From the IMG/VR virus record IMGVR_UViG_3300021514_000002, positions 192,001 through 256,000 of that record: DNA of 64,000 bases; one strand, 5' to 3'. The stretch's first letter is position 1. Each line of letters begins with the position of its first letter. Origin of the DNA: a virus. Taxonomy: Duplodnaviria; Caudoviricetes. The translations under genes were made by a program, and so were the position numbers. The notes beneath the pieces are model-generated. The model did no database searches. It had not been told where the DNA came from and saw only the letters and a list, made by a program, of their open reading frames with translations. This document shows, in pieces, positions 3,909 through 32,602 of this stretch.

Positions 3909-4232
3909 TCATACAGTAAAACTTTCCCCACATCCACATTCGGCAGCAACATTGGGATTATTAAACTTAAACCCTTCATTAAGACCTTCTTTGGTGTAAT
4001 CTAATTCAGTTCCATTAATATAAATAAGACTTTTTTGGTCAACGATGAGTTTAACTCCGTTTGATTCAAACACTACATCATCTGCGTTAACAATATCAAT
4101 AAATTCAAGAACGTATGCCATTCCTGAACATCCTGTTGTTTTTATACCTACGCGCAAACCTAAGCCTTTACCACGACTTGTAAGATAATCCTGAACTCGT
4201 TGCGCGGCAATCTCTGTTATGGATAGTCCCAT
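3909..4232 (-). CDS. iscA: A-type Fe-S carrier protein
   Basis: [20 protein letters not shown] and [15 protein letters not shown], with all three conserved Cys. Confidence 0.95.
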
Positions 4233-10771: not shown

Positions 10772-11116
10772 TTAATCTTTAACTTTACCTTCTTTCATCA
10801 GGTACTTCTTGATACGCTCATCAATTACTGGCATCTTCATACGGAGCATTTCTAATAACATCATTGCATGATCGGCTTCTTCATCGCGATTATGTTCAAG
10901 GAGTTCACGTAGAGCTTCATCTTCCGTGGCATTCATGCGCATATTGTAATCATTAAACGCAGCAAATTCTTCCATCATTGAATGAATAATACGTGAAATA
11001 TCAATATTTTCACTACTTAATTCATTATATGGTTCATCTTCTGCTACCATGGCTTCGCTAATTGGTAGTGTGCTATCATTAAGCATTCTAAATATCCCAA
11101 ATTTCTTCTTTTTCAT
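10772..11116 (-). CDS. Encapsulated-ferritin (EncFtn/Flp)-like protein
   Basis: SMMEEFAAFNDYNMR..LEHNRDEEADHAMMLLEMLR matches the EncFtn half-ferritin signature (EE.EA...Y.QR / HNRDEE.EH.AM.LEWLR). Confidence 0.8.
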   Translation of the reverse strand: MKKKKFGIFRMLNDSTLPISEAMVAEDEPYNELSSENIDISRIIHSMMEEFAAFNDYNMRMNATEDEALRELLEHNRDEEADHAMMLLEMLRMKMPVIDERIKKYLMKEGKVKD

Positions 11117-12590: not shown

Positions 12591-13574
12591 ATGAAACGTA
12601 AAACAACCAAGGAATTTATAGATGAATCTATAGCGATTCATGATAATAGATATGACTATTCGTTAGTTAAATATAAGAATAATAAAACTAAAGTAGAAAT
12701 TATTTGCCAGCTACATGGTAAATTTTTACAAGTAGCTAAAAGTCATTTAATGGGTTCTGGTTGTATTAAATGTCACCATACAGAAACCTCGAAAAGGTTA
12801 CAATACAACAATGCCGATTTTATTAAATTAGCAAAAGAAAAACATAATAATAAGTATGATTATTCTACAACGATTTATGTTAATAGCCATTCAAAGGTTA
12901 ATATTGTTTGTCAGGAACATGGAACATTTATGATGTTGCCAAGTAACCATATATACGGACAAGGTTGTCCAAAATGCGGTCAAATGATAACAGGTAAGTA
13001 TACAACCGCACAATTTATACAAAAGGCGAAACTATGTTACAATGGTAAATTTGACTATTCGTTGGTAGAATATAAAAATTCAACAACGCCCGTGATTATA
13101 AAATGTCCAGAACATGGGAAATTTAAACAACGTCCAGATTATCATTTGACAAATACCATATCTTGCCCCACGTGCGTGAACAATATACGTTCCGAAAATG
13201 GTATAGGTGGGTATTCAATGGCTTTATTCGAGGCGAATTCAGACTTAAAAACTAAAGCTGCATTGTTATATGTAGTAAAAATATATGACAACAACGAATC
13301 TTTTATTAAAGTTGGAATAACTATACAATCATTGAGCGCAAGATTTTCAAAATTTAATATCAATGGTTACAAAATAGTTCCAATTTATACATCGGCCTAT
13401 TCGTTATATGATGCTTTTATAAAAGAACAATCTATTATACAACATTTTATTGGAAGTACTTATAAACCAAAAAGGAAATTTAATGGTTGGACGGAATGTT
13501 TTGTATCAAACATAACACAAAATATTATCAATTTTGTAGACCAACAATGTGCAGAAGTTGTCCATTACCCATAG
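12591..13574 (+). mobile_element. Free-standing homing endonuclease: three DUF723-like zinc repeats plus GIY-YIG-like domain
   Basis: Repeats of H.NKYDYS...Y.N...KV.I.C..HG.F...P..H..G.GC.KC; C-terminal LYVVKIYD..IKVGIT..GWTECF. Opposite strand to neighbours, with its own late promoter. Confidence 0.75.
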
Positions 13575-16153: not shown

Positions 16154-18655
16154 TCATGCTAACGCCATCTCCTCGTCTGTTAGTGCATATGTCCAATCTC
16201 TGTACCTGATTAAAACACCATTCATATAAGATGTATTTTTTGTGCCAAGTTCAATACTGGATGTGGAAATATCATTCGGTGTTCCGTTATAGGTGGAACC
16301 ATCCTGAACGCCGTTCAACCACATTTTAAAAACGCCGTTAGTATGTGTTATACCTACTCTTATAGGAACCCCAATAGGCAAAGGGGTTGTTCCCGTTATT
16401 CGAGCGCCTGTGTTATAGAACCATTCTAAATAGAAGTTTATACCATCAGCAGTAGTGTACACCAATGAATCATGGGTGTTATTATAAACATATATACCAC
16501 CAGTGGAGAACGTTGTACCATACAACACAATATCTAAAATCCTTGTGTAATCATAAATAACTTGTAATGTAACATTGTCCTTCTGCAATGAAATTGTAGG
16601 TGAATGTTTTCTAGTTACCGCGACGGTAGTAGTTTCTATTCTGGATGATGGACCAGATGCATACTCTAGTTGATTATAGTCTATTGCTAGTTTATCACCA
16701 GAGGTGCTTATCTTAATTCCAAACTGGGGATCAAGTTGAGTTTGATTCATCCACACTCTTACCCATGGACGATTTAATATATTCAACTGAGCTGTCACAT
16801 CTGTATAAGTAGCCCCACCATCCATCGTTATGGATATTGTTCCTGTACCAACCAGTCGTTTTATATCACAACTATATGCTCTTCTGGCTGAAGAAGCAGT
16901 AAAAGTTTGAAACACCGTAGCATCGGCTGCTGTTGCTAAGATAGATGATGCTGCACTCGCAACATTGTCCATACCTAGTTGATCAAACAACGCGGTCATG
17001 TTGGTCTTAACCCATGCAGCATTCGACATGTCACGTGAGTAAAGCACCTCATTAGTACGGTCATCTTCACAAACAGTACCGCGAAAATTCTTACCCTCTG
17101 TAGATATTGGGAAACTCCCAACTGTGTATGCTTCGGTAGCAACAGGAATACCGTCAAAAGGTCTGTTCAAAAATAATTGCGTGACATTATTGCCAGTTAT
17201 CCAACGTGCTTCGCCGTCACCACTCCACCATACTAGCTTGTCTTTGTGTTCTCCAGGAGTCCATGTTTGTGTGGTGTCTTCCAATATAGACTGAGTTGAC
17301 CCCGCGCCTGTCAGCGTACCTGAAAATTGTACAAGTGTTTCTACATACTCAAAGCGGTCTTTCTGTGTGAATGTACTTGTTGATGTAGAGTGTACTATAG
17401 GCTCTGGGAACCCGCTATTTATAACTGCGTTATAGTTTGTAAAACTATGGTCGTTAGTAGGAATTGCTATTGTACCAACAGAACCAACAGGAACACCACC
17501 TCCACTAGCAGGTGTTTCATTAACCCATTTACTAGTACCACTATCATAAGTAAGTACCTGACCATCTACAATGTCTAACGGTGAACCCGTTGGTGTAAGG
17601 GTAACATCAGTTAAACCATTTAATGAAGTAACACTGCTCGCACCACCAATACTAGTAAATTTTGCAGCTTCTATAAAGACCGCATCTGCGCTGTCGGATA
17701 AATCTATCGCACCACCGCGAATAATTAAATATCCACGGGTTATTCCTGTGGCAAATGCTGGATTGTATAGGTGATTAACATCCGGCAAATCTGCAAGTGC
17801 CTCGGCGAAGCTTCCATAATCCGTTTGCCCATATTCAATGCGATGACCTGCACCAGGACAATGGTTTATAATCTGGACTGTCCATGTGTTTGAACCAACA
17901 GTACCAGGTGCGCCGTCACCATCATCCCATTCATCAGGAACAATGGTATTAGTCTTGTTTGTTAATGTATATCCGCCAGAGCCATCTTGGTAACTATAAA
18001 TCCATTCGAATGCTGTTTCTGCGCCATCTGTTGTAATATCGGGGACTGCTTTATTAATATGAAAATTGTTACCAACGCGATAACTTTCGCCAATGGATTT
18101 ATCTAAGTTTAAATTTCCACCATTTGCACTATATACGTTACCACTAATGTTAAAACTTCCAAGAGCTAGACCAAGATCGGACAACCGCGCAGCTGTATCA
18201 AATGCAGCAATAGGATCACTTCTTATACCAAGAACATTAGTATTATTTGCATGGCCGATAGTACCAAGAATAATATAATCCCTTGTATTGGCGGGTGTGA
18301 AATTTGTTGTTTGTTGTATAAGATTAACTGAAGGCGAGCCGGAAATATCAATGGCAATAAAAGTTTGTGGCTCGGTCGCAATATTTGTAATTGCAACATC
18401 CGTATAAGCTGACCATGATACAAGTTGATATGTTGGATTTTCAGGATCGGTATAATTATTAACTACAATACCAGACCCTGCTGTTACTGAAAATGTTGTT
18501 GTTGTTAATGGAGAACCAGACAATGTACCAAACGAAAGCGCGCCGCCCGTAAACAATCCTGTTGAAATTTTACTTAATTGTATTGGCAATAAGCCATTTG
18601 CATCAGGAAAAACAACTTCACCTGGTTCGATTTGAAAACCTTTAATACGTGCCAT
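16154..18655 (-). CDS. Virion fibre / receptor-binding protein with C-terminal LamG/ConA-like domain
   Basis: Gly/Thr/Ser-rich beta protein; DGQVLTYDSGTSKWVN fibre motif; RTNEVLYSRDMSNAAWVK; C-terminal VGITH..MWLNG..IELG..ALTDEE; 3 GSP motifs. Confidence 0.75.
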   Translation of the reverse strand: MARIKGFQIEPGEVVFPDANGLLPIQLSKISTGLFTGGALSFGTLSGSPLTTTTFSVTAGSGIVVNNYTDPENPTYQLVSWSAYTDVAITNIATEPQTFIAIDISGSPSVNLIQQTTNFTPANTRDYIILGTIGHANNTNVLGIRSDPIAAFDTAARLSDLGLALGSFNISGNVYSANGGNLNLDKSIGESYRVGNNFHINKAVPDITTDGAETAFEWIYSYQDGSGGYTLTNKTNTIVPDEWDDGDGAPGTVGSNTWTVQIINHCPGAGHRIEYGQTDYGSFAEALADLPDVNHLYNPAFATGITRGYLIIRGGAIDLSDSADAVFIEAAKFTSIGGASSVTSLNGLTDVTLTPTGSPLDIVDGQVLTYDSGTSKWVNETPASGGGVPVGSVGTIAIPTNDHSFTNYNAVINSGFPEPIVHSTSTSTFTQKDRFEYVETLVQFSGTLTGAGSTQSILEDTTQTWTPGEHKDKLVWWSGDGEARWITGNNVTQLFLNRPFDGIPVATEAYTVGSFPISTEGKNFRGTVCEDDRTNEVLYSRDMSNAAWVKTNMTALFDQLGMDNVASAASSILATAADATVFQTFTASSARRAYSCDIKRLVGTGTISITMDGGATYTDVTAQLNILNRPWVRVWMNQTQLDPQFGIKISTSGDKLAIDYNQLEYASGPSSRIETTTVAVTRKHSPTISLQKDNVTLQVIYDYTRILDIVLYGTTFSTGGIYVYNNTHDSLVYTTADGINFYLEWFYNTGARITGTTPLPIGVPIRVGITHTNGVFKMWLNGVQDGSTYNGTPNDISTSSIELGTKNTSYMNGVLIRYRDWTYALTDEEMALA

Positions 18656-18669
18656 TTTTTATATTCTCC

Positions 18670-20922
18670 TTATACCAATAATATGTTTTCAATTTGATTA
18701 CCACTAGGAATAGTGTAATTAAATGTAACGTAACTAGAAAACTCACCAACTGGTACAATGTTGCCGCTTATATCTGTTTCCGCGTAATCGCCGTCTGTGC
18801 CTGCTATGGCAGCTTCTAATTGTGCAAACCCACCCATAGGCGTAAAGTGCACATCCCCATACGGCGATGGCGCGGGTGGTGTTGGTGACGGTGAGCCACC
18901 AGGTATATATGCACCTAATAAAGGTACATTTAATGTGTAATCTGCAACCCAACCGATTGGAATTGTCGTAACGCCTGGTGAGCCGCCAAAACTTGGACCT
19001 GATTGATATACCGAATAAACACTATCAAAGTTGCCATATGTAGCATCAACGGAGCCGCGAATTGTAAATGTTTTTCCTGCTGGGAAAAGTGCAGTTACAT
19101 CGCCACTTATTATAATTTCATCTGGAATTATTGGCGAGCCAGAACCCATACTTGGTGCGCTTATAAAATTCGCGCTTATAATTACTGTAGGACTAGGATC
19201 GGTCGCGAACAAATATGTTCCATCAGGTGAACCAACACCTGGATCAGTTATGGCAATAGAACTAGTCGAGCCTGCTGAATCTGTTGTAAACTTTTCAAGA
19301 TCATCATCTTCGAGTTCAAATAACACATGTGCTAAGTGCGGACTTCCTGAAGACATAATACTATTAATTGTTGCTATAAGACTGCCGTGTGTAACCACAG
19401 ATGCCCCTGCTGGGATAGTTACGGTTACAGCACCACCTCCATTGATGCTTACGGCAAAATCATACGTCACTGTTGCATCTAGACCTGTATAAGTCGTTGA
19501 AGAAATAAGTCCTACGCTTGTATCGTATCTAACACGCTGTACACCATGGGTATGTGCATATTGTTTTAATCCATTTATCGTAATGGATAATTTGTTATCA
19601 TTAACAACATGTGCTAAAATTTCATACGGCGCAGGAGTTGTAAGATCGGCAACAAGTGTTTCAAGATTACGGATAACAGAAAGTTCCGTTGGTTCCGTTG
19701 ATGTTCCACCACTGCCAACGGCTGCGACATTATCAACATAATTTTTTGTAGCAAGATCATTACTGGCTACTGGTTCGGCAGCTGCCACTTGTCCGCCAAA
19801 ATTAGCACCACCCGAAGATGTTACCGTACCAGTAAACGTAGGTGAGGCTCTATTGGCCTTAATTAAATCAATATTTTCAATGACAGCTTGTACTGACGCG
19901 CCCGCAATATCAAGGATTGGGGAACCAGTATTATCAAACGTTATTTCAGTCGCAGTATGGGCATGTCCTACCCGCGATACACCATCTATTGTAAGTATGC
20001 CTATATTTGGCGAGCCTGGATGTGTTATTGTAAATTGTAACGAAGTTTCAGTTATATTTGGTAAGGGTGAACCGCCAGCTGCTGCAATCCAATCGACTTG
20101 ACTTAATACGCCATCGCCCCCAGCACCAGTAAGAACAAATGATTCAACATAGGCTTTAGAAGCTGCCTCGTCTGGATCGGTTGGAGTAAGTGGTAACCCT
20201 GTAATAGTACCACCACCTACAGTAACTGGTGACGCTGGACTACCAAGTGGTGCAACTATTAAATTGCCACCATTTATAGTTAAATTAGCACTGACATCCA
20301 TTGTATCACCAGTGCGACTGATTTTACCATCAAGTTGGTTTTGAATAGTAATTGAACCAATCGGGGAACCAGTGACAATACCTTTTAACGTATTAACTTC
20401 GTCGGCGGTTAACGTTGGCAAATCCAATGAATCTAAGAATGTATTTTGTGTTGTTGTGAGGTGAATAGTATCAAGAACAGTATGGGCATCAACATATTGT
20501 CTAGGTACTGCTCCAAGCGCACTACTGGGGTTACCATCCAATATCAGTTCACCTGTCATAGCAGATGTGCCTGTGGCTAAAATAACAGCATCCCAAGCAG
20601 TTGCACTATTACGAATAAATAACTCTGGACCAAGAATAGGACTTCCAGTACCAATGTTGTTGTACCATAATTGGCCTTCTATCGCAGAACCAGGTTCAGT
20701 ACCTGCTGCGAAGTTTTCAAGCATGTAGATTAAATCTTGCTCAATTCCCTGACCATAATCTTGCATACCTTTACCATACAATTTTAAGGTTGTAGTTGCA
20801 GCTACTGCATGATCAATAAAAATAGGATCGGATGGACTTGTTGGTCCATTCGTGGTATACGGATAAACGGAAAATTCCGGTTTCGTAGTATCTGAATAAA
20901 AAAACGTATATTTTGTTGCCAT
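18670..20922 (-). CDS. Virion structural protein (baseplate/fibre family)
   Basis: N-terminal LKLYGKG..YGQGIEQDLIYMLENFA..IEGQLWYN; DLATKNYVD fibre repeats; 11 GSP motifs. Confidence 0.75.
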   Translation of the reverse strand: MATKYTFFYSDTTKPEFSVYPYTTNGPTSPSDPIFIDHAVAATTTLKLYGKGMQDYGQGIEQDLIYMLENFAAGTEPGSAIEGQLWYNNIGTGSPILGPELFIRNSATAWDAVILATGTSAMTGELILDGNPSSALGAVPRQYVDAHTVLDTIHLTTTQNTFLDSLDLPTLTADEVNTLKGIVTGSPIGSITIQNQLDGKISRTGDTMDVSANLTINGGNLIVAPLGSPASPVTVGGGTITGLPLTPTDPDEAASKAYVESFVLTGAGGDGVLSQVDWIAAAGGSPLPNITETSLQFTITHPGSPNIGILTIDGVSRVGHAHTATEITFDNTGSPILDIAGASVQAVIENIDLIKANRASPTFTGTVTSSGGANFGGQVAAAEPVASNDLATKNYVDNVAAVGSGGTSTEPTELSVIRNLETLVADLTTPAPYEILAHVVNDNKLSITINGLKQYAHTHGVQRVRYDTSVGLISSTTYTGLDATVTYDFAVSINGGGAVTVTIPAGASVVTHGSLIATINSIMSSGSPHLAHVLFELEDDDLEKFTTDSAGSTSSIAITDPGVGSPDGTYLFATDPSPTVIISANFISAPSMGSGSPIIPDEIIISGDVTALFPAGKTFTIRGSVDATYGNFDSVYSVYQSGPSFGGSPGVTTIPIGWVADYTLNVPLLGAYIPGGSPSPTPPAPSPYGDVHFTPMGGFAQLEAAIAGTDGDYAETDISGNIVPVGEFSSYVTFNYTIPSGNQIENILLV

Positions 20923-21040
20923 GTAATAAATCCCTATAAACCAATTACTTTCCAGTATTTATTACTTTGTAATTTAAACACTCTACTAACCTTTTTGGGG
21001 GTCAGTTGTATTGATTTAGGGGATATTTAGTACATAACTA

Positions 21041-22249
21041 TTATTGTCTGTTTAGTCGCTCCGCAAGCAGCATTACGTCAGAAAGGGTTGGCTCTTCAAT
21101 AAACGGTACGTCGTAACTATCATCAAATTCAAATGGTCGGGACATAACTCCATATAATTCGTTCAGGAATACGGGATTCTGTTCGGCAAGCAACCCATTT
21201 TGCATTTCTTCATACGTGTCTTTATGCACGAATGGGAGTTGACAATATCCGTTGACGGGTGCTAAAAATTCATCACCATTTAATAGTTTATTTGCAAGAT
21301 GGCATTTTGAACAAAATTGTCTAGCTTCACAAGTACCACATCGTATATCTTTTTGTGGTACTGGAATATCCAAACTATCCTCAAGTTCTTTTAAGCTACT
21401 AACTTCAAGAATGTTACCAAACCCATACTTATCTTTCTCTTCTGGGTGTTCTTGTGCATACGCATAATACCTATGACATGACCACAAACCACCATCGGGC
21501 GATAAGGCAAGCAAGTATTTTCCTGCACCACATCCGTAATGATCTTGGTTGGTTGAACGGAATGGTGATAAATGTGTAATAAATACAGACGCACCATCTC
21601 TATAAGATTTTACGACCATATCTTTTATGCGCCTAAATTCTATGCGGTATTTTTCTGCATCTTCCATCGTCCATTTATCAACTTCAATAACAGGAACAAT
21701 ACCAATAGATCTAATACCAAGATTGATCATTTTTTGAATACCATCTGCAACACCATCTATTGTATCTGGGGTTACGGTAGTTTCAATATGTAATGTTCGT
21801 TCATTACCCGCTTCGCTTTCGCAACGCATACAACCAGTACCTTGGTATTCTTCTACATAACGCTTAATATTATCTTCGACATTTGTTAAATTGATGCCAC
21901 CCATGGGGTGAACGAAATCTTGTCTAGTACCATCATAACTTATTTGTACCATAATATTTCTTTTAGTTTCTCTAAGTTTTTCCAATAGTGGTTCTTTCAT
22001 GAAACTACCATTTGTGAAAATCTTAATATATGACTTATTGCCTTTTTCGTCTAAGCGATTAAGGATATCAATAATCATATCACTGAATAGAAGTGGTTCA
22101 CCACCAAAAATACTCAATACATCGTTATCAGTCAATAGTTCGATAATTTTATCAACTACTCGTGGTTCTGCTTCTTCATTCTTAAATGGTACATAACAAT
22201 ATGTACATCTAAAATTACAGCGTCGGGTAAGATATAACTTAAGCTCCAT
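21041..22249 (-). CDS. Radical SAM/SPASM peptide-maturase-like enzyme (rSAM-1)
   Basis: CNFRCTYC, FGGEPLL, SPASM Cys set GCGAG..LSPDG..SCHRY..CGTCEARQFCSKC..GYC. Confidence 0.93.
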   Translation of the reverse strand: MELKLYLTRRCNFRCTYCYVPFKNEEAEPRVVDKIIELLTDNDVLSIFGGEPLLFSDMIIDILNRLDEKGNKSYIKIFTNGSFMKEPLLEKLRETKRNIMVQISYDGTRQDFVHPMGGINLTNVEDNIKRYVEEYQGTGCMRCESEAGNERTLHIETTVTPDTIDGVADGIQKMINLGIRSIGIVPVIEVDKWTMEDAEKYRIEFRRIKDMVVKSYRDGASVFITHLSPFRSTNQDHYGCGAGKYLLALSPDGGLWSCHRYYAYAQEHPEEKDKYGFGNILEVSSLKELEDSLDIPVPQKDIRCGTCEARQFCSKCHLANKLLNGDEFLAPVNGYCQLPFVHKDTYEEMQNGLLAEQNPVFLNELYGVMSRPFEFDDSYDVPFIEEPTLSDVMLLAERLNRQ

Positions 22250-23441
22250 AATATTTCCTTAGTGCGTAATAAACGCTTACTATTGTTTTTAGAACTTGTG
22301 TGGTACAATAACCGGGTTGTGTGGCTTCAACTGGACACGATACCCCGCAATATTTTAATACGTTACATGTTTTACACTTATCAGCAACAGAAGATGGGGA
22401 ATCCTCTAAACCCACCTGTGTACAACGTTGAAATGTTGACGCTTTTGATGTTTCTGGTGTTACTACAGGAACGTCACCAACATACAATCTACATCCTCTT
22501 GCTAAGAAGAAATTAGAATCGTTGGCTTTTAATCTCTCGTAAATCTGTTCACCGCGTTCAATTGCACTTAGTGGCATTTCGGTACGCTTGCCATCAATTA
22601 TTGCATTTACGTCAATAAGCAACAATGCCAATAGTGTATCAAACTCATTATCGGTTGGTAAGAACTTATCTTCTGAAACTACTTCAAATGTTAATGACAG
22701 TTCACGATTTAAGTCTGGCTCAAATTCCTTACGAATTTCTGTATAATCATAACTACCATTACACAGTGTCGCGCGAATACCAAAGTCATCGCCTGTTAAT
22801 TTGGCTAATTCTTTCGCTCTGGGTATAATGTTTTCTTGGAATTTTCCTGGTCGGTATTTGTTAGTAGGGTCTAAACTAACTTGAAGAGCTATCCTATTTG
22901 GATATTTGTCTAAAACATCAAGTAAGTTGTTATATTCTTTATCACTCACAAATAGGCCAGTTGAGATCGATACCACATATTCTGTCTGTTCTAGAATATC
23001 TTTTATTAGTTCAAAATTTAATAATGGCTCACCGCCTAAAATCGTTATATCTTTTAAAGTATCTACACTATCAATAGCTTCTAATGATTTCATTAGATAT
23101 TCAAATGTTACAACTTCACCGTTTATCATCCATGGCGTAGCGTAACAATAAGTACACTTTCCGCGACAAACGTTTGTAGAATTAACATAAATTGATTCCA
23201 CACGGCTTGGTGTAAATTGACCCAATTCCACTTCTAACTCGGCAAGAAATTCTGTTCTTGCCATGTCTGCGTCTGTTGTGTCGCTTACAATATTAACGTC
23301 ACCATGATACAACAATTTAACTGGTTGCTTTAGTGGATAGTCTGGTAGTTCTTGAAACATAGCAAGTTCTAACGAATAGGCAATATTTTTATCACCTATC
23401 TTAAACATCACAAGTTCAGGAATTTCATTTCTGCGGATCAT
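22239..23441 (-). CDS. Radical SAM/SPASM enzyme (rSAM-2)
   Basis: CRGKCTYC, LGGEPLLN, C-terminal GC..RC..CKTCNVLKYCGVSC..GYC; ~80-aa N-terminal extension. Confidence 0.9.
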   Translation of the reverse strand: MIRRNEIPELVMFKIGDKNIAYSLELAMFQELPDYPLKQPVKLLYHGDVNIVSDTTDADMARTEFLAELEVELGQFTPSRVESIYVNSTNVCRGKCTYCYATPWMINGEVVTFEYLMKSLEAIDSVDTLKDITILGGEPLLNFELIKDILEQTEYVVSISTGLFVSDKEYNNLLDVLDKYPNRIALQVSLDPTNKYRPGKFQENIIPRAKELAKLTGDDFGIRATLCNGSYDYTEIRKEFEPDLNRELSLTFEVVSEDKFLPTDNEFDTLLALLLIDVNAIIDGKRTEMPLSAIERGEQIYERLKANDSNFFLARGCRLYVGDVPVVTPETSKASTFQRCTQVGLEDSPSSVADKCKTCNVLKYCGVSCPVEATQPGYCTTQVLKTIVSVYYALRKYYGA

Positions 23442-24648
23442 TTATTACTCCTTTTCGTGTGATGAAAAACGTGGCATATAAACTAAATACATAATCAATA
23501 ACTTTAACGTAACAATATAGTTCTTTAAATTTCTTAATCCCACATGAGCCACCACATAGCTTCAAGTAATTACATTCTTTACAAACGCCCGACGTTTCTA
23601 CAACTTCCTCGACCATGCTTTCATTATATAATGATTCGTCTAAAATTGGACGATTTGGACTATCACAGTAAGATAAACTGCCGTCTGGTAATAGCGTAAA
23701 GTAATTAAAACCACAGCCACATGTGCGCATATTTTTAACAATACCTTCATCATGGAACATAGGGAAAACATTCATCATAAATGAAGTTCTTTCGGTTAGG
23801 TCGCCAGCTAAAAACGCATCGAGTTCTTTATCATACAATCCACGTACTTGATCTAATGTATTGTGATTAGATAAGCGGATATCTTCAAATCCATATCCCA
23901 CCCCATCAAAGTTCACCTGAGCGCCGTCAGGAAGTTCACTACGTAAGGCATGGATGTCGTACGCTTCACGGTTTATTGTGGTTTTAACCCTAATGCGCGA
24001 ACCAAGAAATTTATATAATTTATGGAACAATCTTATATTTCGTTCGCGCTTACCTTGTTCGCTACTTGCCTTATATCGTAGCGAATTGGGAGGATCGATG
24101 CTTAATGAAATTTCAACATTATCACGGAACATTAAAAAGGTTAATAGGTCATCTATCTCGCCATCTGAACAAGGAAATGATGTACAAATTGTCCAGTCTG
24201 TATTGGGAAATAAATCAATGATATGTTTTACAATTCCAATATTCTCAAGTGGGTCACCACCAAGGAACATTCCACCCTTAATGTCTTCTGGTACAATATT
24301 ATATCGTTTAATGAATTCAGCTACGGTTTTTTCAGTTAAGACAGTCTTATCATTTTTTTCAGAAGCGGCGTAACAATATGAGCATTTAAGAGAACAATAC
24401 CAAGATGGTATTACAGTAAGGCTAGTTATTTTGCGTTCTGCAAATTCACAACTGCGAGATTGTTGAATATTATTATATATTTCATTTTGTTTGTTTTTAT
24501 TATCTTTTATGTCGTTGCATACATCCAACACTATTGGTTGATCGTATTTCCTTGGTGATACTTTCCAAGTAAGATTGATTAGATCAACCTCAACGGTAGT
24601 GTCGTCGTGGGACAGGAATGCCGTGTCCCATTTCATTAAATCTTTCAT
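23425..24648 (-). CDS. Radical SAM/SPASM enzyme (rSAM-3)
   Basis: CSLKCSYC, LGGDPLEN, TCGCG..LLPDGSLSYCD..CKECNYLKLCGGSC..YC; N-terminal extension. Confidence 0.9.
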   Translation of the reverse strand: MKDLMKWDTAFLSHDDTTVEVDLINLTWKVSPRKYDQPIVLDVCNDIKDNKNKQNEIYNNIQQSRSCEFAERKITSLTVIPSWYCSLKCSYCYAASEKNDKTVLTEKTVAEFIKRYNIVPEDIKGGMFLGGDPLENIGIVKHIIDLFPNTDWTICTSFPCSDGEIDDLLTFLMFRDNVEISLSIDPPNSLRYKASSEQGKRERNIRLFHKLYKFLGSRIRVKTTINREAYDIHALRSELPDGAQVNFDGVGYGFEDIRLSNHNTLDQVRGLYDKELDAFLAGDLTERTSFMMNVFPMFHDEGIVKNMRTCGCGFNYFTLLPDGSLSYCDSPNRPILDESLYNESMVEEVVETSGVCKECNYLKLCGGSCGIKKFKELYCYVKVIDYVFSLYATFFITRKGVINDPQK

Positions 24649-24660
24649 TCTAACCTTCTT

Positions 24661-26232
24661 TTATAAGGATGATATGTCTATATTATTATCTATAAGTGGA
24701 AGCGCTTCGCCAATATTTGCGTAAACTTCTGGATATGTATATGTTTCTTTATTTTTTATTACCCCGTATACATGTTTTGCTCTACCCATCATGATTACTC
24801 TGAATGGGAAGTTATGAAACGTATATACTGCAACCAAACTCTCAGGATCGATTTTTAAATAACTTCCTTCAACCCCGTAACTTTCTTCAAATTGATGGAT
24901 TTCTAATACGCGAACATCTTCGCCATTTTGGTCTTTGACATATTGATCGTCGTTACAAAAACCATCAGTGGCCATAATATTTCGTACAGAAATTCCAATC
25001 TTTGAAAACATACGAACAATAGACATGTAAGTAAATTCCATTTGTGGAATTAATGCATCTATTGCAACGAGTTGCTCACCTTCATTTACTTTACTAGTAA
25101 GAATACGCTTAAAATTAATCATGGCATGATATAATCCCATGATGCCATTAACTCCTTCTTCTAAATTCCCACCAAACTTGTCAAGTATATTAACACCCAT
25201 TATAGAATATGTCAAGCGTTCTAATATGTCATAATTTGCTGGCATATTAAATTTATTAAGAATAGAACAAACATGGGCAGTACCTGCCGAAACTGTCATT
25301 TCATTATTAACATCTGTAATTATTTGGTCATGTTTACTTAACACATCAAGATCTTTTCTAAAGGTGCAAGTAGATATTTTACCAAATTGTTTAATTACAA
25401 CATTACCATTTAAGCAAGATACAATAGGAAATAGTAAGCTTGTCGGGGAATACATTTTTTTCATTTCTGGAACAACGTCTAATAGATGTTTAATATGCTC
25501 AACTTCATATCTTTCATCATTTTTCCAGAACCCTTCTATTTCATTTAATGGTTGTATTGCAACGTTAATACCTTGTCGCTTAACATCATCCATTAATGTG
25601 CGAATTTCTTCAGGTGTTTGTTTATCTGACATCATTAGGTTGGTCTGTACGCGCGTGGGATCGATATCCGACACCGCTTGAAGTGTTCGGCGTACATCAG
25701 CATATTGAATAAATCTTGGATTAACCATACGAGGGTCAGACGAAATAGTAATATATGAACGAGGATCTGAAAAATATTTAGTAATAGTATTGGTATCCAT
25801 TCCGTTGGAAAACAATTCTACTTTAATGTGTTTATCAGGATCAATTTCATCAAGAAACCCATATAACTTTTTTAGAGCTGGTTCATTTTTGGCTTGTAAC
25901 AGTTCACCACCAGATGTTTCAAGAACAGAAGGTTTAAATTCTGCAATACGATCCATGGTGTCTTTAAGTTTAGGGTAGTTGTTTCGCACTTCTGGGAAAT
26001 TTTCAACAAAAAAACGTTCCAAACAATAATCACATGTAGTATTGCATTGTTTGTAACTTGTAATTTTTGTTTCCATTCGGGAAATATCTACTTTCGGAAG
26101 GGCGGCGATTTCGGATTTATTAAACCCATCGCCAGATCCATGAACACCCAAAGTATTTACCCAATGTTGGTCTGCTTCTGAATTACAAGGGTCGTTGAAG
26201 AATAGCTTGGTGCCATTTTTAAATGTTATCAT
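24661..26232 (-). CDS. Radical SAM enzyme with truncated auxiliary-cluster region and extra C-terminal domain (rSAM-4)
   Basis: CNTTCDYC, SGGELL, LFSNG, VSCLNG..KISTCTF; ~170 extra C-terminal residues. Confidence 0.8.
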   Translation of the reverse strand: MITFKNGTKLFFNDPCNSEADQHWVNTLGVHGSGDGFNKSEIAALPKVDISRMETKITSYKQCNTTCDYCLERFFVENFPEVRNNYPKLKDTMDRIAEFKPSVLETSGGELLQAKNEPALKKLYGFLDEIDPDKHIKVELFSNGMDTNTITKYFSDPRSYITISSDPRMVNPRFIQYADVRRTLQAVSDIDPTRVQTNLMMSDKQTPEEIRTLMDDVKRQGINVAIQPLNEIEGFWKNDERYEVEHIKHLLDVVPEMKKMYSPTSLLFPIVSCLNGNVVIKQFGKISTCTFRKDLDVLSKHDQIITDVNNEMTVSAGTAHVCSILNKFNMPANYDILERLTYSIMGVNILDKFGGNLEEGVNGIMGLYHAMINFKRILTSKVNEGEQLVAIDALIPQMEFTYMSIVRMFSKIGISVRNIMATDGFCNDDQYVKDQNGEDVRVLEIHQFEESYGVEGSYLKIDPESLVAVYTFHNFPFRVIMMGRAKHVYGVIKNKETYTYPEVYANIGEALPLIDNNIDISSL

Positions 26233-26262
26233 ATTATCGTCCTATGTTAAGGGTATAAATTA

Positions 26263-26577
26263 TTATATGTTCTTAATTATTACGGAACGCGGAGCACCAT
26301 CAATTAATAGTTTTAATTGTGCAAACGGTGTTTCTTTTTGAATTAAAAGATTATATACAATATCTTTTGTATTTTCGCCCGTATCTAAAGTACGATTATC
26401 CGTGAGTTTAATATTATTATCGGATATATCAACATCGATACTCATATCAAGATCAGCCGATATAATTAACTCTAACCTATTAAAACCTTCGGTATCTAAA
26501 GCGCTATTAGCAATCTCTACTACGACCACATCAGATGATGTGTTTACTACATCTACTAAAAATTTATTATTGTCCAT
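26263..26577 (-). CDS. Hypothetical accessory protein in rSAM cassette
   Basis: 104 aa, AAGGA SD, tightly spaced. Confidence 0.7.
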   Translation of the reverse strand: MDNNKFLVDVVNTSSDVVVVEIANSALDTEGFNRLELIISADLDMSIDVDISDNNIKLTDNRTLDTGENTKDIVYNLLIQKETPFAQLKLLIDGAPRSVIIKNI

Positions 26578-26590
26578 GATATATCCTTTA

Positions 26591-27247
26591 TTAAATTACA
26601 ACTAATGTGTAGGTATATGTAGTTGGTACGCTAAATTCCATAAAATTATTTTTTGGAACTGAAGCTTTACCAATGGATATAACGTACATTCCAGATGTTG
26701 TTAAATTAAATTGCTTTGTTGTAGGATCATAATAATCCACTGTATTGCCCGTATTCATACGGAAACATTTAATAGATTTTAATAACTCTGGGGTACGAAT
26801 ATCAGAGAATGGACTAAGATCGAAACCGTTCAATGAATATGTTCCAATAGAACATATGTTACCATACGACGTTTTCATTCTAAGTTTTGTTGTTGTTTCC
26901 GTGATATCAATCTTCGGCGTAAGCATTTCTATCAACATAGAATATGTTCCGGCCATCATTCGTGCTTCACCAGTATCACTAAACTGTGTAGCAGGTGACA
27001 AAATAACTACCTTTTCTGAATATCCATTAAATTCTTCAATACTGCCAATTAATTCATCAGTTGGTAATATTACATCTTTAACTTCAATCGCTAACGTATT
27101 TACATTGAAAACGATATATTTTCCAACCGTACCATCACCTATCATGGTATCATCAAAACTGATAGTATCAATTGTGGCAATCGCATTTAATGAAATCTTG
27201 GAAAAAGATAACGATTCAACAACGTCTGTTAGTACAAATATTCTCAT
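26591..27247 (-). CDS. Hypothetical accessory protein in rSAM cassette (218 aa)
   Basis: True start is probably MRIFVL at 27247 (TAACATG coupling to the upstream stop); the track's upstream extension is an alternate frame of the Cys repeat. Confidence 0.7.
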   Translation of the reverse strand: MRIFVLTDVVESLSFSKISLNAIATIDTISFDDTMIGDGTVGKYIVFNVNTLAIEVKDVILPTDELIGSIEEFNGYSEKVVILSPATQFSDTGEARMMAGTYSMLIEMLTPKIDITETTTKLRMKTSYGNICSIGTYSLNGFDLSPFSDIRTPELLKSIKCFRMNTGNTVDYYDPTTKQFNLTTSGMYVISIGKASVPKNNFMEFSVPTTYTYTLVVI

Positions 27248-27248
27248 G

Positions 27249-28904
27249 TTATCCCCATTTAGCACATTTACTATGTGCGCAGTTACAAGTGCAAGTGCAA
27301 GTGCAAGTGCATGTACACCCACAAGTATTATTAGAACTTGGTATATATTTTGTAGTAGCACCAAATACTACTTCTAGTGAATTACCTACGAGGTTACTAG
27401 CAGAATCATAATAAGCTGCCCCATTATATGTAACTGTAGCGCCACCCGTAACTACAAAATTAAGTTTATTTGCACCATCATCATATGTTACATCAATTCC
27501 AGATTCGAAGTTTCCACTTATCATTGCACCGACAATATCCTGCAAACTTTCGGTTTTTTGTGTTTCAAAATTTGCGGCGGTTAATACTTCCGCACCACTA
27601 ATGGTAATATTAGTACCATCTAATGTGGTTGGTCCAATCCACGAAATCGTTGCACCTATCGTACCTGATATTGCATGATATATCTCAATACCCGTAGTAT
27701 GTATTCGCAGCATCACAGCTGGCTCGCCGGATTTTGCGTATGTGTGTACAGCACCTGTCCATGTAGCATTCCATAAATGTTCTACCCTACCTGAGCCATC
27801 GTCTTGGACAATTGAGTATTTGCCATTGGTTGATGTTTGTTCTAACAAGGTCGCAACAGCAGAAAATGCTAAGGTGCCTAACATAGTATCGCCAGTATCG
27901 TTTACATATCGTCCATCTGCATAATCTCGGTTTATTCCATCTGTGCCAACAACAGGAGTTCCAACATTATTAATTTGATTCGTTGCCATATCCAAGTCGC
28001 CTGCCATGGCATCGCCTGTTACATTAACAAATCGGTTGTCAGCGTAACCAAGATTTACAGCATCGTCTGCCGAATCAGGATCAGCAAGATTTTCAATTTT
28101 ATGCGAGTCCATGTTGAGAGCGCCTTGCATAGCTTTACTACCGTCACGCGGTAAGTAATTTGCGGAAACGCGTGTCCAATCTGGGGAACCACCTGTAAAA
28201 ATTCGTAAATTTCTTTCATATTCATCACTGCTAATGGCGTATGTTGAAGTTTCCCACCATAGATCGCTTATCGATGGTGCTGTTGGTGCTGTATCAGAAA
28301 AAGTAATACCACCAACACGTTTCCATATTCCTGTGAGTGGTGAACCTAAAAATTCATAAACGTAGATTTGTCCCCGTGTTTGGTTATACCACATCTGTCC
28401 TTCTATTGGGGTAGTTGCGCTAAATTGGCCTGCTTTATTTGGAACGCCAAGTTCGCCCGCACTAGCTGAAATTGCACCTGATGTAAGGTTCGGTGCAGTA
28501 AGAGGACTACCCGTAGATGCTAATGTAATTGTTGTTTCTGTAGAACCATTATATACTGCTGACTGAACGACATACGTTCCATCGTCTGTAGGTGACCCAG
28601 TAGAACCCCAAATATTAAAACTCCTTGTTGGGGGGAATGCTCGTTCAACGTCACCCACAATAGTAAAAGTTGTCCCTGTTGGAACACTAGTTATAATATG
28701 AATGTCTTCTTCCGATGAAAAATTTTCCAACATATGGATGAAGTTTTCGAGGATAGTTTCGCCCCATAGCGAATGCCCCATGCCAATAAGGTCTATGTCT
28801 GTTTGTCTGTTTCCACCGCGTGGACCAGCAACAGCATTGGGTAAAACGTTGAGAGTACTTTTTGTTGGATCAACAAAATTTATAGTGTAATTCTTAGCGG
28901 CCAT
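27249..28904 (-). CDS. Virion structural / fibre protein with C-terminal poly-(Cys-Xaa) tail
   Basis: Same N-terminal family motif (LIGMGHSLWGE..MLENFS, PIEGQMWYN), fibre repeats (DAVNLGYAD, GINRDYAD), ends TCGCTCTCTCTCTCNCAHSKCAKWG. Confidence 0.85.
   Translation of the reverse strand: MAAKNYTINFVDPTKSTLNVLPNAVAGPRGGNRQTDIDLIGMGHSLWGETILENFIHMLENFSSEEDIHIITSVPTGTTFTIVGDVERAFPPTRSFNIWGSTGSPTDDGTYVVQSAVYNGSTETTITLASTGSPLTAPNLTSGAISASAGELGVPNKAGQFSATTPIEGQMWYNQTRGQIYVYEFLGSPLTGIWKRVGGITFSDTAPTAPSISDLWWETSTYAISSDEYERNLRIFTGGSPDWTRVSANYLPRDGSKAMQGALNMDSHKIENLADPDSADDAVNLGYADNRFVNVTGDAMAGDLDMATNQINNVGTPVVGTDGINRDYADGRYVNDTGDTMLGTLAFSAVATLLEQTSTNGKYSIVQDDGSGRVEHLWNATWTGAVHTYAKSGEPAVMLRIHTTGIEIYHAISGTIGATISWIGPTTLDGTNITISGAEVLTAANFETQKTESLQDIVGAMISGNFESGIDVTYDDGANKLNFVVTGGATVTYNGAAYYDSASNLVGNSLEVVFGATTKYIPSSNNTCGCTCTCTCTCTCNCAHSKCAKWG
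27285..27326 (-). repeat. Hexamer repeat (ACTTGC/ACTTGT) encoding Thr-Cys
   Basis: Plus strand ACAAGT GCAAGT GCAAGT GCAAGT GCATGT ACACCC ACAAGT. Confidence 0.9.
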
Positions 28905-28915
28905 GTTTATTCCTC

Positions 28916-29551
28916 TTATGTCCTTATGATGTATATTAAGTTATCGCCAGGTGACGCAATATTTGGCACATCAAATGTAGTTACAGACAGCGGACTTCCT
29001 AAACTAAAAGTATCACCAATTTCAATATAAAGTGCAGCAAATCGTGCTTTGTTTACAGATTGTCCAGAACATTCTAGTTCATTTGCCGACATTGTATTTC
29101 TTGCATCAATCCGTATGGTACCCGGTGAAATATTAACAGATACCCAATGGGTACCATTAAAAGTAAAGTGGTCTTTTGATGTCGTGTCGTACCAATGTTG
29201 TCCTATGATTGGTGTAGTTATTCCATTACCAATCCCAAGGTCGTTTTCGTCTTTTGGCATTACTGGATGAATAGTTTCATCATAAAGCGTCGTAGGGGAA
29301 CCTACAATAAAAGTGTCGCCTGTTACTTTTCGTGGGCAGGAAAAATTTTCCAACATACGGTATAAATTTTGATCTACGCCTTCGCCCCATTTTAGTGAAC
29401 CAAATCCAAATAAGCGCAGATCTGTCTGTCGGGCTAATCCAGCCGGACCATTTAACTCACCTGGTCCAATAACAAACGAATTGGCTTCCTTTTCAGATAA
29501 AATAGCTGCGTCATTGAAGGCTGTTTTCTTTATTACGAACGTTTCTGACAT
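28916..29551 (-). CDS. Virion structural protein (same N-terminal family)
   Basis: LRLFGFGSLKWGEGVDQNLYRMLENFS, PIIGQHWYD, collar-like LECSGQSVNKARFAALYIEIG; GATAAATA at 29583-29590. Confidence 0.75.
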   Translation of the reverse strand: MSETFVIKKTAFNDAAILSEKEANSFVIGPGELNGPAGLARQTDLRLFGFGSLKWGEGVDQNLYRMLENFSCPRKVTGDTFIVGSPTTLYDETIHPVMPKDENDLGIGNGITTPIIGQHWYDTTSKDHFTFNGTHWVSVNISPGTIRIDARNTMSANELECSGQSVNKARFAALYIEIGDTFSLGSPLSVTTFDVPNIASPGDNLIYIIRT

Positions 29552-29605
29552 AATATATCCATTAAATAATTAATTATATGACTATTTATCACAGGCATAT
29601 AATCT

Positions 29606-31101: not shown

Positions 31102-31298
31102 TATTTTATTAACTCCTCAGAAACGACATCTTTTTCATGACAAACCATATTCAATTTTATATTAATTTCGGTTGGTAACCCAAATAACGTGATTGATGAA
31201 GCTACTGTTTCAAATTCTGTTATTGTTCCTTCAAGATTGTGTTGTTCTAAAAATACAATCAAATCTTCAGGTGTTGTTGGCATTATCATGCTTTTCAT
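31101..31298 (-). CDS. Hypothetical protein
   Basis: Overlaps both neighbours. Confidence 0.55.
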   Translation of the reverse strand: MKSMIMPTTPEDLIVFLEQHNLEGTITEFETVASSITLFGLPTEINIKLNMVCHEKDVVSEELIK

Positions 31299-32602
31299 TT
31301 TACTAACTCCATTGCATCATCAAATTTGTTCACTCTAAGTTCTTTGATGAATTGTTTTCCAATATCAGAATCTTTATCAACTATCATACTTGGTTTAGTT
31401 TCAAGTTGTGCTTTTAGAACCTCATATTGAAGTTTCGTTCTTTCCATGTAAGATTCTGGAACCCTCATGGCATCAGAAACTTTGCGTTGGAAATATTCAA
31501 GATCATCTAACATACCAAGACCTTGACCACATGGTAATGTTTCAACAAGTGAACCCCGCCCTTCTGGATTTGATGAAGAAATGAAATCTTCTGTTATCCA
31601 TTTACCATCACGGACAACTTTTGAGGTCATTTGTGGTATATACGGTGCATAAAAATATCCAGTATCTAATTGTTTCGGTTCTGTTTCAAAATCAAACACG
31701 AGTTGTTTTTCACAATTTTCTTCGTCTATATTAAGCAACTCTACCCCTAATGACTTTATGTGAATTGGTATGTGAATGAATTCTGCGGCATCATTTGGTT
31801 TAATAGTAACATCAACGTGCAATTTATTGTTATCAATACGACTAGGCGTATTATTGGTTTCATCACAAACTACCGAATAGTCAACGATGCTACTGTTTGA
31901 AAGAATATTAGTAATATCACATCTCACCCGCTCGTGGGTTAATGAATCATTTGGTTTGTCTATGTGGACTGCCAGTCCCGCTTGAATGTTTCTTTTAAGA
32001 TCTATAAGCTGTCTGCGTACGTTTACCTTATCGAAAGATGAAGTGTCAGATAGTGCTTCACTTTTTATAGTTGTTAAAGTTAAAATCTCTGCTTTCAATT
32101 CAACAATCTCATCTTTAAGTTTACAAATGGTATCCTTGTCGTCCCTCATGTCGACTAAATCATCATAACTATACCCAAACGCCGTGTTATAATGCGTATG
32201 GTCAAAAGACCCATAAGGTATATTCATTAATGTATTTGTTGTAATATTATTAATTTGCGTTTGCACATCATCTGTGATTTTTGCTGTATGCATTATTGGA
32301 ACGTGAACGTCTTCGATATGTTCGGAAGATGGTTTTGGCATACAACCACGTGATGATACACCGAGACTAATCGGTTTATTGAGCAATTTCATTGCTTCGT
32401 GTATTGTTTCTATATTTACTTCTGGTGCTGGGGTATTAGAATAAGTGCAGGGCGAAGCTGGATAATCAAACATATTTAAAAATGAAAAATTATCATCTAT
32501 AGCCGATACACATGGACTTTTTAGTTTTGGTTTGGTTTCTTTTTTGTTAATCTCTGGTAAGAACTTATCGAACTCGTCTAAGAAATTTTGATTTTTTATC
32601 AT
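31295..32602 (-). CDS. Mosaic protein with tail-sheath, major-capsid and portal-like fragments
   Basis: SSFDKVNVRR..VVCDETNNTPSRIDNN..IKP (gp18 C-terminus), DTGYFYAPYIP (gp23 motif), EDF..GRGSLVETLPCGQGLGMLDDLEYFQRK..MRVPESY (gp20 segment). Confidence 0.75.
   Translation of the reverse strand: MIKNQNFLDEFDKFLPEINKKETKPKLKSPCVSAIDDNFSFLNMFDYPASPCTYSNTPAPEVNIETIHEAMKLLNKPISLGVSSRGCMPKPSSEHIEDVHVPIMHTAKITDDVQTQINNITTNTLMNIPYGSFDHTHYNTAFGYSYDDLVDMRDDKDTICKLKDEIVELKAEILTLTTIKSEALSDTSSFDKVNVRRQLIDLKRNIQAGLAVHIDKPNDSLTHERVRCDITNILSNSSIVDYSVVCDETNNTPSRIDNNKLHVDVTIKPNDAAEFIHIPIHIKSLGVELLNIDEENCEKQLVFDFETEPKQLDTGYFYAPYIPQMTSKVVRDGKWITEDFISSSNPEGRGSLVETLPCGQGLGMLDDLEYFQRKVSDAMRVPESYMERTKLQYEVLKAQLETKPSMIVDKDSDIGKQFIKELRVNKFDDAMELVK

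Follow-up and report, generated by a model that had tools for sequence, protein, structure and literature searches.

What are four consecutive radical S-adenosylmethionine (rSAM) enzyme genes doing in the fibre region of a bacteriophage, close behind a fibre gene whose product ends in alternating Cys and Thr residues? The question is raised by a 64,000-nucleotide (nt) stretch of DNA, hereafter the window, which corresponds to bases 192001-256000 of the 363.5-kb virus record IMGVR_UViG_3300021514_000002 (completeness 100% according to CheckV). The fibre, of 551 amino acids (aa), is encoded at 27249..28904 on the minus strand, and the enzymes, designated rA, rB, rC, and rD, between 26232 and 21041. 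An interpretation of the DNA letters alone, referred to below as the sequence-only reading, had proposed that the enzymes mature the tail of the fibre in the manner of RiPPs (peptides made by ribosomal synthesis and modified post-translationally). According to the comparative analysis described here, the tail and the enzymes probably work as a single unit, of which we are fairly confident. RiPP-like thioether cross-linking of the fibre tip is the most likely reading of that unit, and we hold it with moderate confidence, judging the chemistry from the nearest relatives of the enzymes.

The Cys-tailed fibre and its gene block

Eight minus-strand genes make up the block, which runs from 29551 to 21041 with successive gaps of 11, 1, 13, 30, 12, -17, and -11 nt; the tight run described in the sequence-only reading, with gaps of at most 30 bp or overlaps, was thus recovered. 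The gene order was also as described, each open reading frame (ORF) lying where that reading had placed it: a 211-aa protein with a collar domain, the 551-aa fibre, two small ORFs encoding beta-sandwich proteins, and the four rSAM genes with CxxxCxxC motifs. A late-promoter-like sequence, GATAAATA (29583..29590, minus strand; a consensus match only), is situated 32 nt upstream of the first gene. The late-type motif ATAAATA, reported earlier at this place, was found at 29583-29589 (minus strand); its next copy on this strand is at 20956-20962, just upstream of the gene for a 750-aa fibre protein, and none occurs in between. Across the window the motif is not enriched (43 copies found versus 48 expected). 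Its placement fits a block that is read as one late transcription unit.

Residues 1-352 of the 551-aa protein form the backbone, which is 57% identical to the fibre of the related phage L007, and a swapped tip begins at approximately residue 353. A conserved pre-tail segment (residues ~492-527; 27324..27431, minus strand), with the motif Y-x-G ... VG-x-x-L-x-VVFG-x-x-T-x-Y-[IV]-P-[SA], is common to otherwise unrelated fibres and represents a candidate “leader-like” recognition element. It is followed by the Cys tail, the candidate core or substrate, which occupies residues 528-551 (27252..27323, minus strand) and consists of CGC(TC)5NC and then AHSKCAKWG. All nine Cys residues of the protein are located here, at positions 528, 530, 532, 534, 536, 538, 540, 542, and 547; a residue-by-residue count thus verified the claim of nine Cys in the final 24 aa and none elsewhere.

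The protein was assigned to the tail fibres on the basis of fibre-family homology and its place in a tail-fibre gene block. It has weak PHROG tail-fibre matches, shares its N-terminus with the neighboring fibres, and adjoins the 211-aa protein (28916..29551, minus strand), which has a Phage Tail Collar domain. Tail-bearing proteins of other phages carry the fibre N-terminus PF12571 (E 3e-45 in L015 and 1e-4 in L036). An exhaustive HMMER search with the last 212 residues of the fibre mostly recovered a common fibre repeat (residues ~450-490), not the tail, and the tails had no matches in NCBIfam, Pfam, or PHROG. No other Cys-rich ORF was found in the block, save two antisense stretches of 26 and 31 codons, and neither a protease nor an exporter gene was detected there. 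The ORF scan also agreed with the earlier statement that the block contains no separate short precursor gene. The system accordingly falls outside the RiPPs in the strict sense, which have a short dedicated precursor whose leader is removed to release a peptide product: the sole Cys-rich ORF is the 551-aa fibre itself.

Co-occurrence of the tail and the enzyme genes

A search of 5.8 billion proteins yielded nine homologues of rD with 40-85% identity. On those of their contigs that reach upstream, the genes follow in the same order, namely a fibre, a ~205-257-aa protein, a ~92-127-aa protein, rA, rB, rC, and rD. The tail and the cassette co-occur in all nine lineages with visible context, which are those of uncultured phages, on at least five unrelated fibre bodies; these lineages are the window, L014, L015, L016/L017, L199 with L021, L200, L201/L202, the L036 group (four IMG/VR records), and L134. 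Starting from the enzymes, the fibre end was reached in three lineages with readable DNA, where it reads CGC(TC)7NC-NHSKCWKL (L014), CGC(TC)4NC-NHGKCAK (L015), and CGC(TC)3(QC)2NC-NHSKCAKWG (L016 of L016/L017). Proteins found by their tails, P0185 (L199), P0194 (L200), and P0193 (L201/L202), are in turn followed by cassette genes up to the contig ends, and L200 includes the N-terminus of rA, with CxxxCxxC, behind the tail-bearing fibre. A pattern scan of IMG/VR identified a sister system in L022, L023, L024, L034, and L036, in which the fibre, of 854 aa and with an N-terminus like PF12571, terminates in CGC(TC)3QC-TAPCNCCKGAGPV and is succeeded by a 245-aa protein and four divergent rSAM genes. 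The metagenome pattern scan provided L134, which has a variant tail and an rSAM gene directly after it.

Beyond the last 45-80 residues, the fibre bodies have no relationship to one another: PF12571 N-termini occur in two, and the three others each differ. What all tail-bearing fibres have in common is the pre-tail segment and the Cys run. The sequence-only reading had stated that a repeated occurrence of rSAM genes near Cys-repeat proteins would support the link, and a strict co-occurrence over nine lineages was found. It had also named two observations that would speak against the link, namely rSAM homologues that mostly lack a Cys-repeat neighbor and clustering with DNA-base modification genes. 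Close homologues were never found without the tail where the context was visible, and no cassette examined contained DNA-modification genes.

In the relative L007, the backbone genes are shared and identically ordered, but the tip of the fibre carries S-H-T-H-T (His-x-His), all six cassette genes are absent, and an orthologue of the 750-aa protein follows the fibre directly. By this comparison, one edge of the module falls within the fibre gene, near 27848, and the other just before 20922. The gene for the 750-aa fibre protein (18670..20922, minus strand), preceded by its own ATAAATA, marks the downstream boundary because synteny with the cassette-less L007 resumes there. The 211-aa collar protein belongs to the backbone, outside the swapped module, since it is kept beside the fibre in L007. 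That a near relative without the tail also lacks the cassette supports the proposed link between the fibre tip and the enzymes.

An N-terminal segment of ~70 aa (...D-L-x-L-x-G-x-G-x-x-x-W-G-E ... L-E-N-F) recurs in the 211-, 551-, and 750-aa proteins and is probably a common attachment domain of several different fibres. Gly-Ser-Pro is strongly over-represented in the fibre proteins (18670-20922 on the minus strand, 27249-28904, 28916-29551, and 16154-18655). The 750-aa protein contains 11 copies, where 0.5 would be expected and 2000 shuffles gave at most 3, and its L007 orthologue is alike; judging by this excess, the tripeptide may be a modification sequon.

The tail DNA of the window contains a perfect hexamer repeat of 4.3 copies (27286-27311) with a (TGCACT)4 tract, and lineages differ in the length of the run, which has 6 to 10 Cys. 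Both features could be expected if a slippage-prone microsatellite had come to lie beside metabolic rSAM genes by chance or through an artefact at the DNA level. However, the back-translated tail pattern CGCTCTCTC has one match in the window and none in 100 shuffles. The codon choice in the tail differs by lineage, and the GC content of the genes ranges from 36 to 59%; thus, what is under selection is the peptide, not a repeat in the DNA. The runs that contain the phage sequence are hydrothermal-vent metagenomes, and a second study contains 41% of the sampled words. Since an identical contig spanning the Cys tail is present in this independent vent metagenome, the tail is not an assembly artefact; no differences in repeat number between samples were seen when contigs only were compared. 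Given the strict co-occurrence as well, the comparative data refute the explanation by chance or DNA artefact, to which we would assign next to no probability.

Outside these lineages, the searches returned little. Among 50,697 records of cultured phages, megablast with the block and tblastn with the fibre gave no matches, and tblastn with rD gave only matches of up to 35% identity (full-length below 25%), mostly to unannotated gut-phage contigs. No relative was found in IMG/VR with rD alone, and a search with an alignment recovered only L015 and distant rSAM clusters. The metagenome scan with the back-translated tail returned 107 stretches, almost all of them spurious short or low-complexity frames, L134 being the only relevant one. 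None of the 30 matches to the tail pattern in prokaryote genomes was convincing, although L053 (a 402-codon frame in a Mycobacteriales metagenome-assembled genome) passed the length and position cut; these genome scans thus gave no clear sign of a cellular version of the system.

Other IMG/VR contigs carry three to eight tandem rSAM/SPASM genes beside proteins of 138-327 aa with C-terminal Cys repeats of other periods, the units being C-x3-C with Gln/Val, CTCDCDYA, and CDTC. These proteins (L175 5196-5750; L176 9143-9691; L177 11337-12320; L178 11334-12302; L180 11167-11745; L189 12308-12724) have no Pfam or PHROG match.

The four enzymes and the predicted cross-links

The four enzymes, all encoded on the minus strand, have a conserved CxxxCxxC motif, which places them in the rSAM superfamily. 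Their scores against PF04055 (cut-off 29.5 bits) were 61.9 for rD, 41.4 for rC, 29.3 for rB, just below the cut-off, and 17.6 for rA; rB, rC, and rD match Pfam Radical_SAM and Fer4_12. The divergent rA (523 aa; 24661..26232) has its CxxxCxxC motif at residues 63-70 and a C-terminal extension of ~200 aa. Its identification as an rSAM enzyme is supported by an hhalign alignment to rD (95.6% probability, including the GGE motif) and a match to MoaA (1e-6). The others are rB (407 aa; 23425..24648), with an N-terminal domain of ~80 aa, rC (400 aa; 22239..23441), and rD (402 aa; 21041..22249), which is without an N-terminal domain. In 6/6 orthologues, rB, rC, and rD keep three Cys for the cluster, one in mid-barrel, and seven of the SPASM type. 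The SPASM Cys follow the motif C-x9-15-G-x4-C ... C-x2-C-x5-C-x3-C ... C, for two auxiliary 4Fe-4S clusters. By this Cys set, all three belong to the SPASM enzymes, as the sequence-only reading had claimed; the TIGR04085 profile scored rB at 24.1 bits versus a cut-off of 27. The count of four CxxxCxxC genes also stood, but rA lacks a full SPASM domain: its three extra Cys (273, 289, and 322), conserved in 6 orthologue sets, are twitch-like.

The maximum-likelihood tree resolved separate clades for rA (support 100/100), rB (93/84), rC (99/97), and rD (100/99). The enzymes are 1:1 orthologues in a fixed order with 31-63% identity. By this tree, rA-rD have long been distinct, each conserved for a function of its own, and are not recent tandem copies. 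In some relatives, rA is separated from the small ORFs by a fifth rSAM gene (L199 2009-3214; L019 3-554; the contig of P0004), which nests inside the rC clade and is thus an rC duplicate.

Many peptide-maturase models of NCBIfam match rB, rC, and rD, every one of them far under its curated cut-off. The best match of rD is the PapB family NF047865 (125.9 bits, E 2e-36, full length; cut-off 340), to which it is a related non-member. It is likewise not a member of the SCIFF maturase/CteB family TIGR03974 (62.5 bits; cut-off 425), whose SCIFF-type peptide ORF is also lacking, or of TIGR04115 (71.7 bits, 7e-20; cut-off 350) and TIGR04119 (50.9 bits, 1e-13; cut-off 150). In profile searches against the PDB, CteB was the top match for rD (3e-20) and rB (3e-10), followed by TigE, SuiB, and anSME. 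The AlphaFold model of rC, with a predicted local distance difference test score (pLDDT) of 73 and a predicted template modelling score of 0.77, has a fold like that of CteB over the full length (Z 17.1, residues 9-397). This includes the N-terminal domain, which in CteB is the peptide-recognition element; the corresponding region of rC has pLDDT values of 54-87. No PqqD-like RiPP recognition element, a winged-helix domain for leader binding, was matched among the cassette proteins by Pfam or NCBIfam.

These matches also leave room for enzymes that act on the tail by other radical chemistry, such as formylglycine formation of the anSME type, epimerisation, C-methylation, sulfur or selenium chemistry, or mixed steps divided among the paralogues. 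The anSME enzymes are among the best structural and sequence matches, rC weakly matches the YydG/EpeE epimerase, four to five separately conserved paralogues suggest several reactions, and all the named families are missed by a wide margin. However, thioether formers are the top matches for rD, rB, and rC, and the anSME sequon, C/S-x-P/A-x-R, is not present in the tail. We therefore consider other chemistry unlikely.

Under thioether cross-linking, the following mechanism can be proposed. The portable module would comprise the fibre tip (a pre-tail segment of ~35 aa and CGC(TC)n...NC-x-HSKC), the two beta-sandwich proteins, and rA-rD, with five enzymes in some phages; the cassette and the fibre would be transcribed late together. 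The SPASM enzymes would recognize the pre-tail segment during or after fibre synthesis, probably via the CteB-like N-terminal domains of rB and rC. The 5'-deoxyadenosyl radical chemistry would then join the sulfurs of the tail Cys to carbon atoms of the Thr, Asn, Gln, or Asp residues that lie between them, and the links would be ranthionine- or sactionine-type thioethers, within one chain or between fibre chains. The product would stay on the virion as a redox-insensitive, cross-linked distal tip. What the data show is the gene association, the families of the enzymes, and the conserved Cys sets; we infer that the tail is the substrate, that thioethers are formed, that the product is retained on the virion, and what the tip does. 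The association suggests that phages with the module chemically cross-link the tip of their host-recognition fibre.

Thioethers are favored because the nearest characterized enzymes form Cys-to-carbon links and because a reduction-proof link would suit an extracellular fibre in sulfidic vent fluid. They are also favored because the residues between the Cys, pooled over the tails (T 33, G 7, N 4, Q 4, A 3, D 1), are almost only Thr, Asn, Gln, and Asp, types for which a ranthionine acceptor role has been reported or proposed, in addition to Gly and Ala. CteB is reported to use Thr as the acceptor, NxxcB Asn, and PapB Asp. Asp and Glu are the acceptors of QhpD, and a C-x-x-Q/D motif has been proposed in CrpA (PMC13692751). 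In the absence of a protease, an exporter, or a second Cys-rich ORF, the product probably stays on the virion, much as the modification is retained on the protein in the case of QhpC and CrpA (PMC13692751). Given that the tip travels with its enzymes from one unrelated fibre to another, the modification probably has to do with host recognition or with the persistence of the fibre in reducing, sulfidic surroundings, in which disulfides do not hold.

A more specific form of this mechanism would have the enzymes staple the fibre chains by an inter-chain thioether ladder, perhaps with some thiolates holding metal, to give a covalently locked, reduction-proof receptor-binding needle. Phage fibres are typically trimers. 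We regard this form as possible but doubtful; if true, it would be a new enzymatic “chainmail” of the virion made by radical chemistry, with a tip cassette that is exchanged together with its tailoring enzymes.

The arrangement of a pre-tail segment and a C-terminal core resembles the leader-core layout of RiPPs, and the fibre could accordingly be viewed as a giant leader from which the modified tail is cleaved and freed at lysis to act as a toxin, a signal, or an antibiotic. Leaders the size of a protein have precedent (reference cited in PMC13692751). However, no cassette contains a protease, exporter, or immunity gene, the tail is always on fibre proteins at the distal end, and the module swaps in the manner of receptor-binding tips, which makes a released RiPP highly improbable.

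The tip could instead be an unmodified, metallothionein-type site binding metal or Fe-S clusters, in which thiolates would play the part that His-x-His metal sites have in other fibre tips. The rSAM enzymes would then serve another target (the beta-sandwich proteins or a host molecule) or metal loading. Such a role is suggested by the His-x-His motifs at the equivalent tip of the cassette-less L007, by the origin of the phage from metal- and sulfide-rich vents, by the Fe-S carrier and ferritin-like genes in its genome, and by a similar rSAM cluster without Cys in the phage RP12. It leaves unexplained, however, why four maturase-type SPASM enzymes move with the tail across unrelated fibres, and in the two small proteins Cys is nowhere conserved and hardly any residue is invariant. 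We judge the metal-binding tip, also as a thiolate counterpart of His-x-His sites, to be quite unlikely.

Several points weigh against thioether cross-linking. Every named maturase family is far below its cut-off, so homology does not allow the chemistry to be transferred. To our knowledge, the Cys-x-Cys spacing is tighter than in any characterized ranthipeptide or sactipeptide. Multi-rSAM clusters beside virion genes are also not always tied to Cys repeats, judging by a distantly related four-rSAM cluster in Ralstonia jumbo phage RP12, a cultured phage related to phiKZ. Its locus (ORF072-ORF080, NC_041911.1 79417-89997) resembles the block in having two annotated virion structural genes, then a 125-aa ORF ending in H-T-H, a 295-aa protein whose fold matches that of the 218-aa protein, and four successive rSAM-like genes. 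Unlike in the block, no neighbor has a Cys-rich tail, and the enzymes are 22-30% identical and fall outside the rA-rD clades. The complex prediction of rB with the last 62 fibre residues gave a score of 0.01, which counts neither way. The RP12 paper lists these genes without interpretation (PMC5468394); the cluster may serve as a tractable model for phage multi-rSAM clusters.

Known systems close to the proposed one include the ranthipeptide systems CteB/CteA (SCIFF, thermocellin) and PapB/PapA (freyrasin), which combine a 7-Cys SPASM rSAM enzyme with Cys-repeat cores and provide the best sequence and fold matches. CteB links Cys to Thr, the commonest inter-Cys residue of the phage tail. In contrast to these systems, the phage one is viral, without a protease or exporter, and scores well below their cut-offs. 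Its substrate would be the end of a 400-850-aa fibre, compared with a free peptide of ~45 aa; Cys-x-Cys takes the place of C-x3-D or longer spacing, and there are four or five different enzymes where those systems have one. T4-type long-tail-fibre tips (T4 gp37) have His-x-His metal sites and likewise present alternating metal-ligand residues at the distal tip, with S-H-T-H-T in L007 where the phage has the Cys run; theirs, however, are His and not Cys, and we know of no modifying enzymes for them. The CXXX-repeat system (TIGR04115, TIGR04119) is another regular Cys-repeat target with a SPASM maturase, and viral CxxxC-tailed proteins occur by multi-rSAM clusters in L175, L177, and L178. It differs in its period (4 versus 2), and the phage target is fused to a fibre, with scores far under the cut-offs. 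QhpC, an enzyme subunit, and CrpA, an archaeal protein, each receive their thioethers from one SPASM rSAM enzyme (PMC13692751). QhpD/QhpC and CrpC/CrpA are the known analogues of the proposed phage system: the modification is retained on a functional protein, Cys-rich repeats are encoded beside the enzyme, and recognition is by an N-terminal domain (PMC13692751), which in the phage enzymes is putative. Their targets are cellular proteins, whereas in the phage the target would be the tip of a virion fibre, its core would be C-terminal, and four or five enzymes accompany it.

Full-text literature searches found no description of rSAM-modified phage fibres. Particular to the present system are the (Cys-Thr)n tail with Cys at every second residue, a pre-tail segment that is conserved, four or five distinct enzymes that recur with two beta-sandwich proteins as a fixed set, and, in a vent jumbo phage, a clean comparison with and without the cassette. 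If the proposed mechanism is true, it would extend RiPP-type chemistry from small secreted peptides to virus particles, explain puzzling multi-rSAM clusters in jumbo and other phages, and provide a ~60-residue tag and an enzyme set reusable for protein stapling.

Small proteins and genomic surroundings

The two small ORFs are present where the sequence-only reading had placed them, but both encode beta-sandwich proteins and not recognizable RiPP recognition elements. The 218-aa protein (26591..27247, minus strand) has two tandem beta-sandwich domains and occurs in all cassettes. Its start is the ATG at 27247, one base past the fibre stop, and not the upstream TTG. The model (pLDDT 75) matches only generic Ig/filamin folds (Z <7) and ORF075 of RP12 (E 1e-4, TM 0.53), and the protein may be a partner of the fibre tip or an assembly factor. 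The 104-aa protein (26263..26577, minus strand) is a single beta-sandwich without Cys that resembles small phage proteins. Both proteins evolve fast, and neither has matches in NCBIfam, Pfam, or PHROG. From their predicted folds, they appear to be neither enzyme-like nor recognition elements of the PqqD type.

Downstream of the cassette, within 17 kb, lie genes for an A-type Fe-S cluster carrier (PF01521, E 1e-21; window 3909-4232, minus strand) and for an encapsulated-ferritin-like protein (PF22277, E 5e-25; 10772-11116, minus strand). In the relative L021, the Fe-S carrier is located at 12754-13095, ~9 kb from rD. Two further rSAM genes were found elsewhere in the phage genome (G000:C1:49269-49730 and 99335-99796), and no flavodoxin was found in it. 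The carrier and the ferritin-like protein may supply Fe-S clusters to the six rSAM enzymes of the phage.

The phage possesses T4-type replication genes, including rIIA, a clamp loader, a gp41-type helicase, and a primase. Its clamp loader shows 43-47% identity to those of the jumbo myoviruses XacN1, RsoM2USA, and PA5oct. The clamp-loader gene of L007 (3246-5285) encodes 679 aa versus 310 aa in the window and includes a LAGLIDADG domain (PF14528, E 1e-8), which indicates a putative intein-type insertion that is missing from the window copy. Between the replication and fibre genes, a 435-aa ORF (31295-32602, minus strand) resembles an odd sheath/portal chimera, with the C-terminal domain of a tail sheath (PF17482) at residues 186-282 and a short stretch like the T4 portal (PF07230) at residues 336-390.

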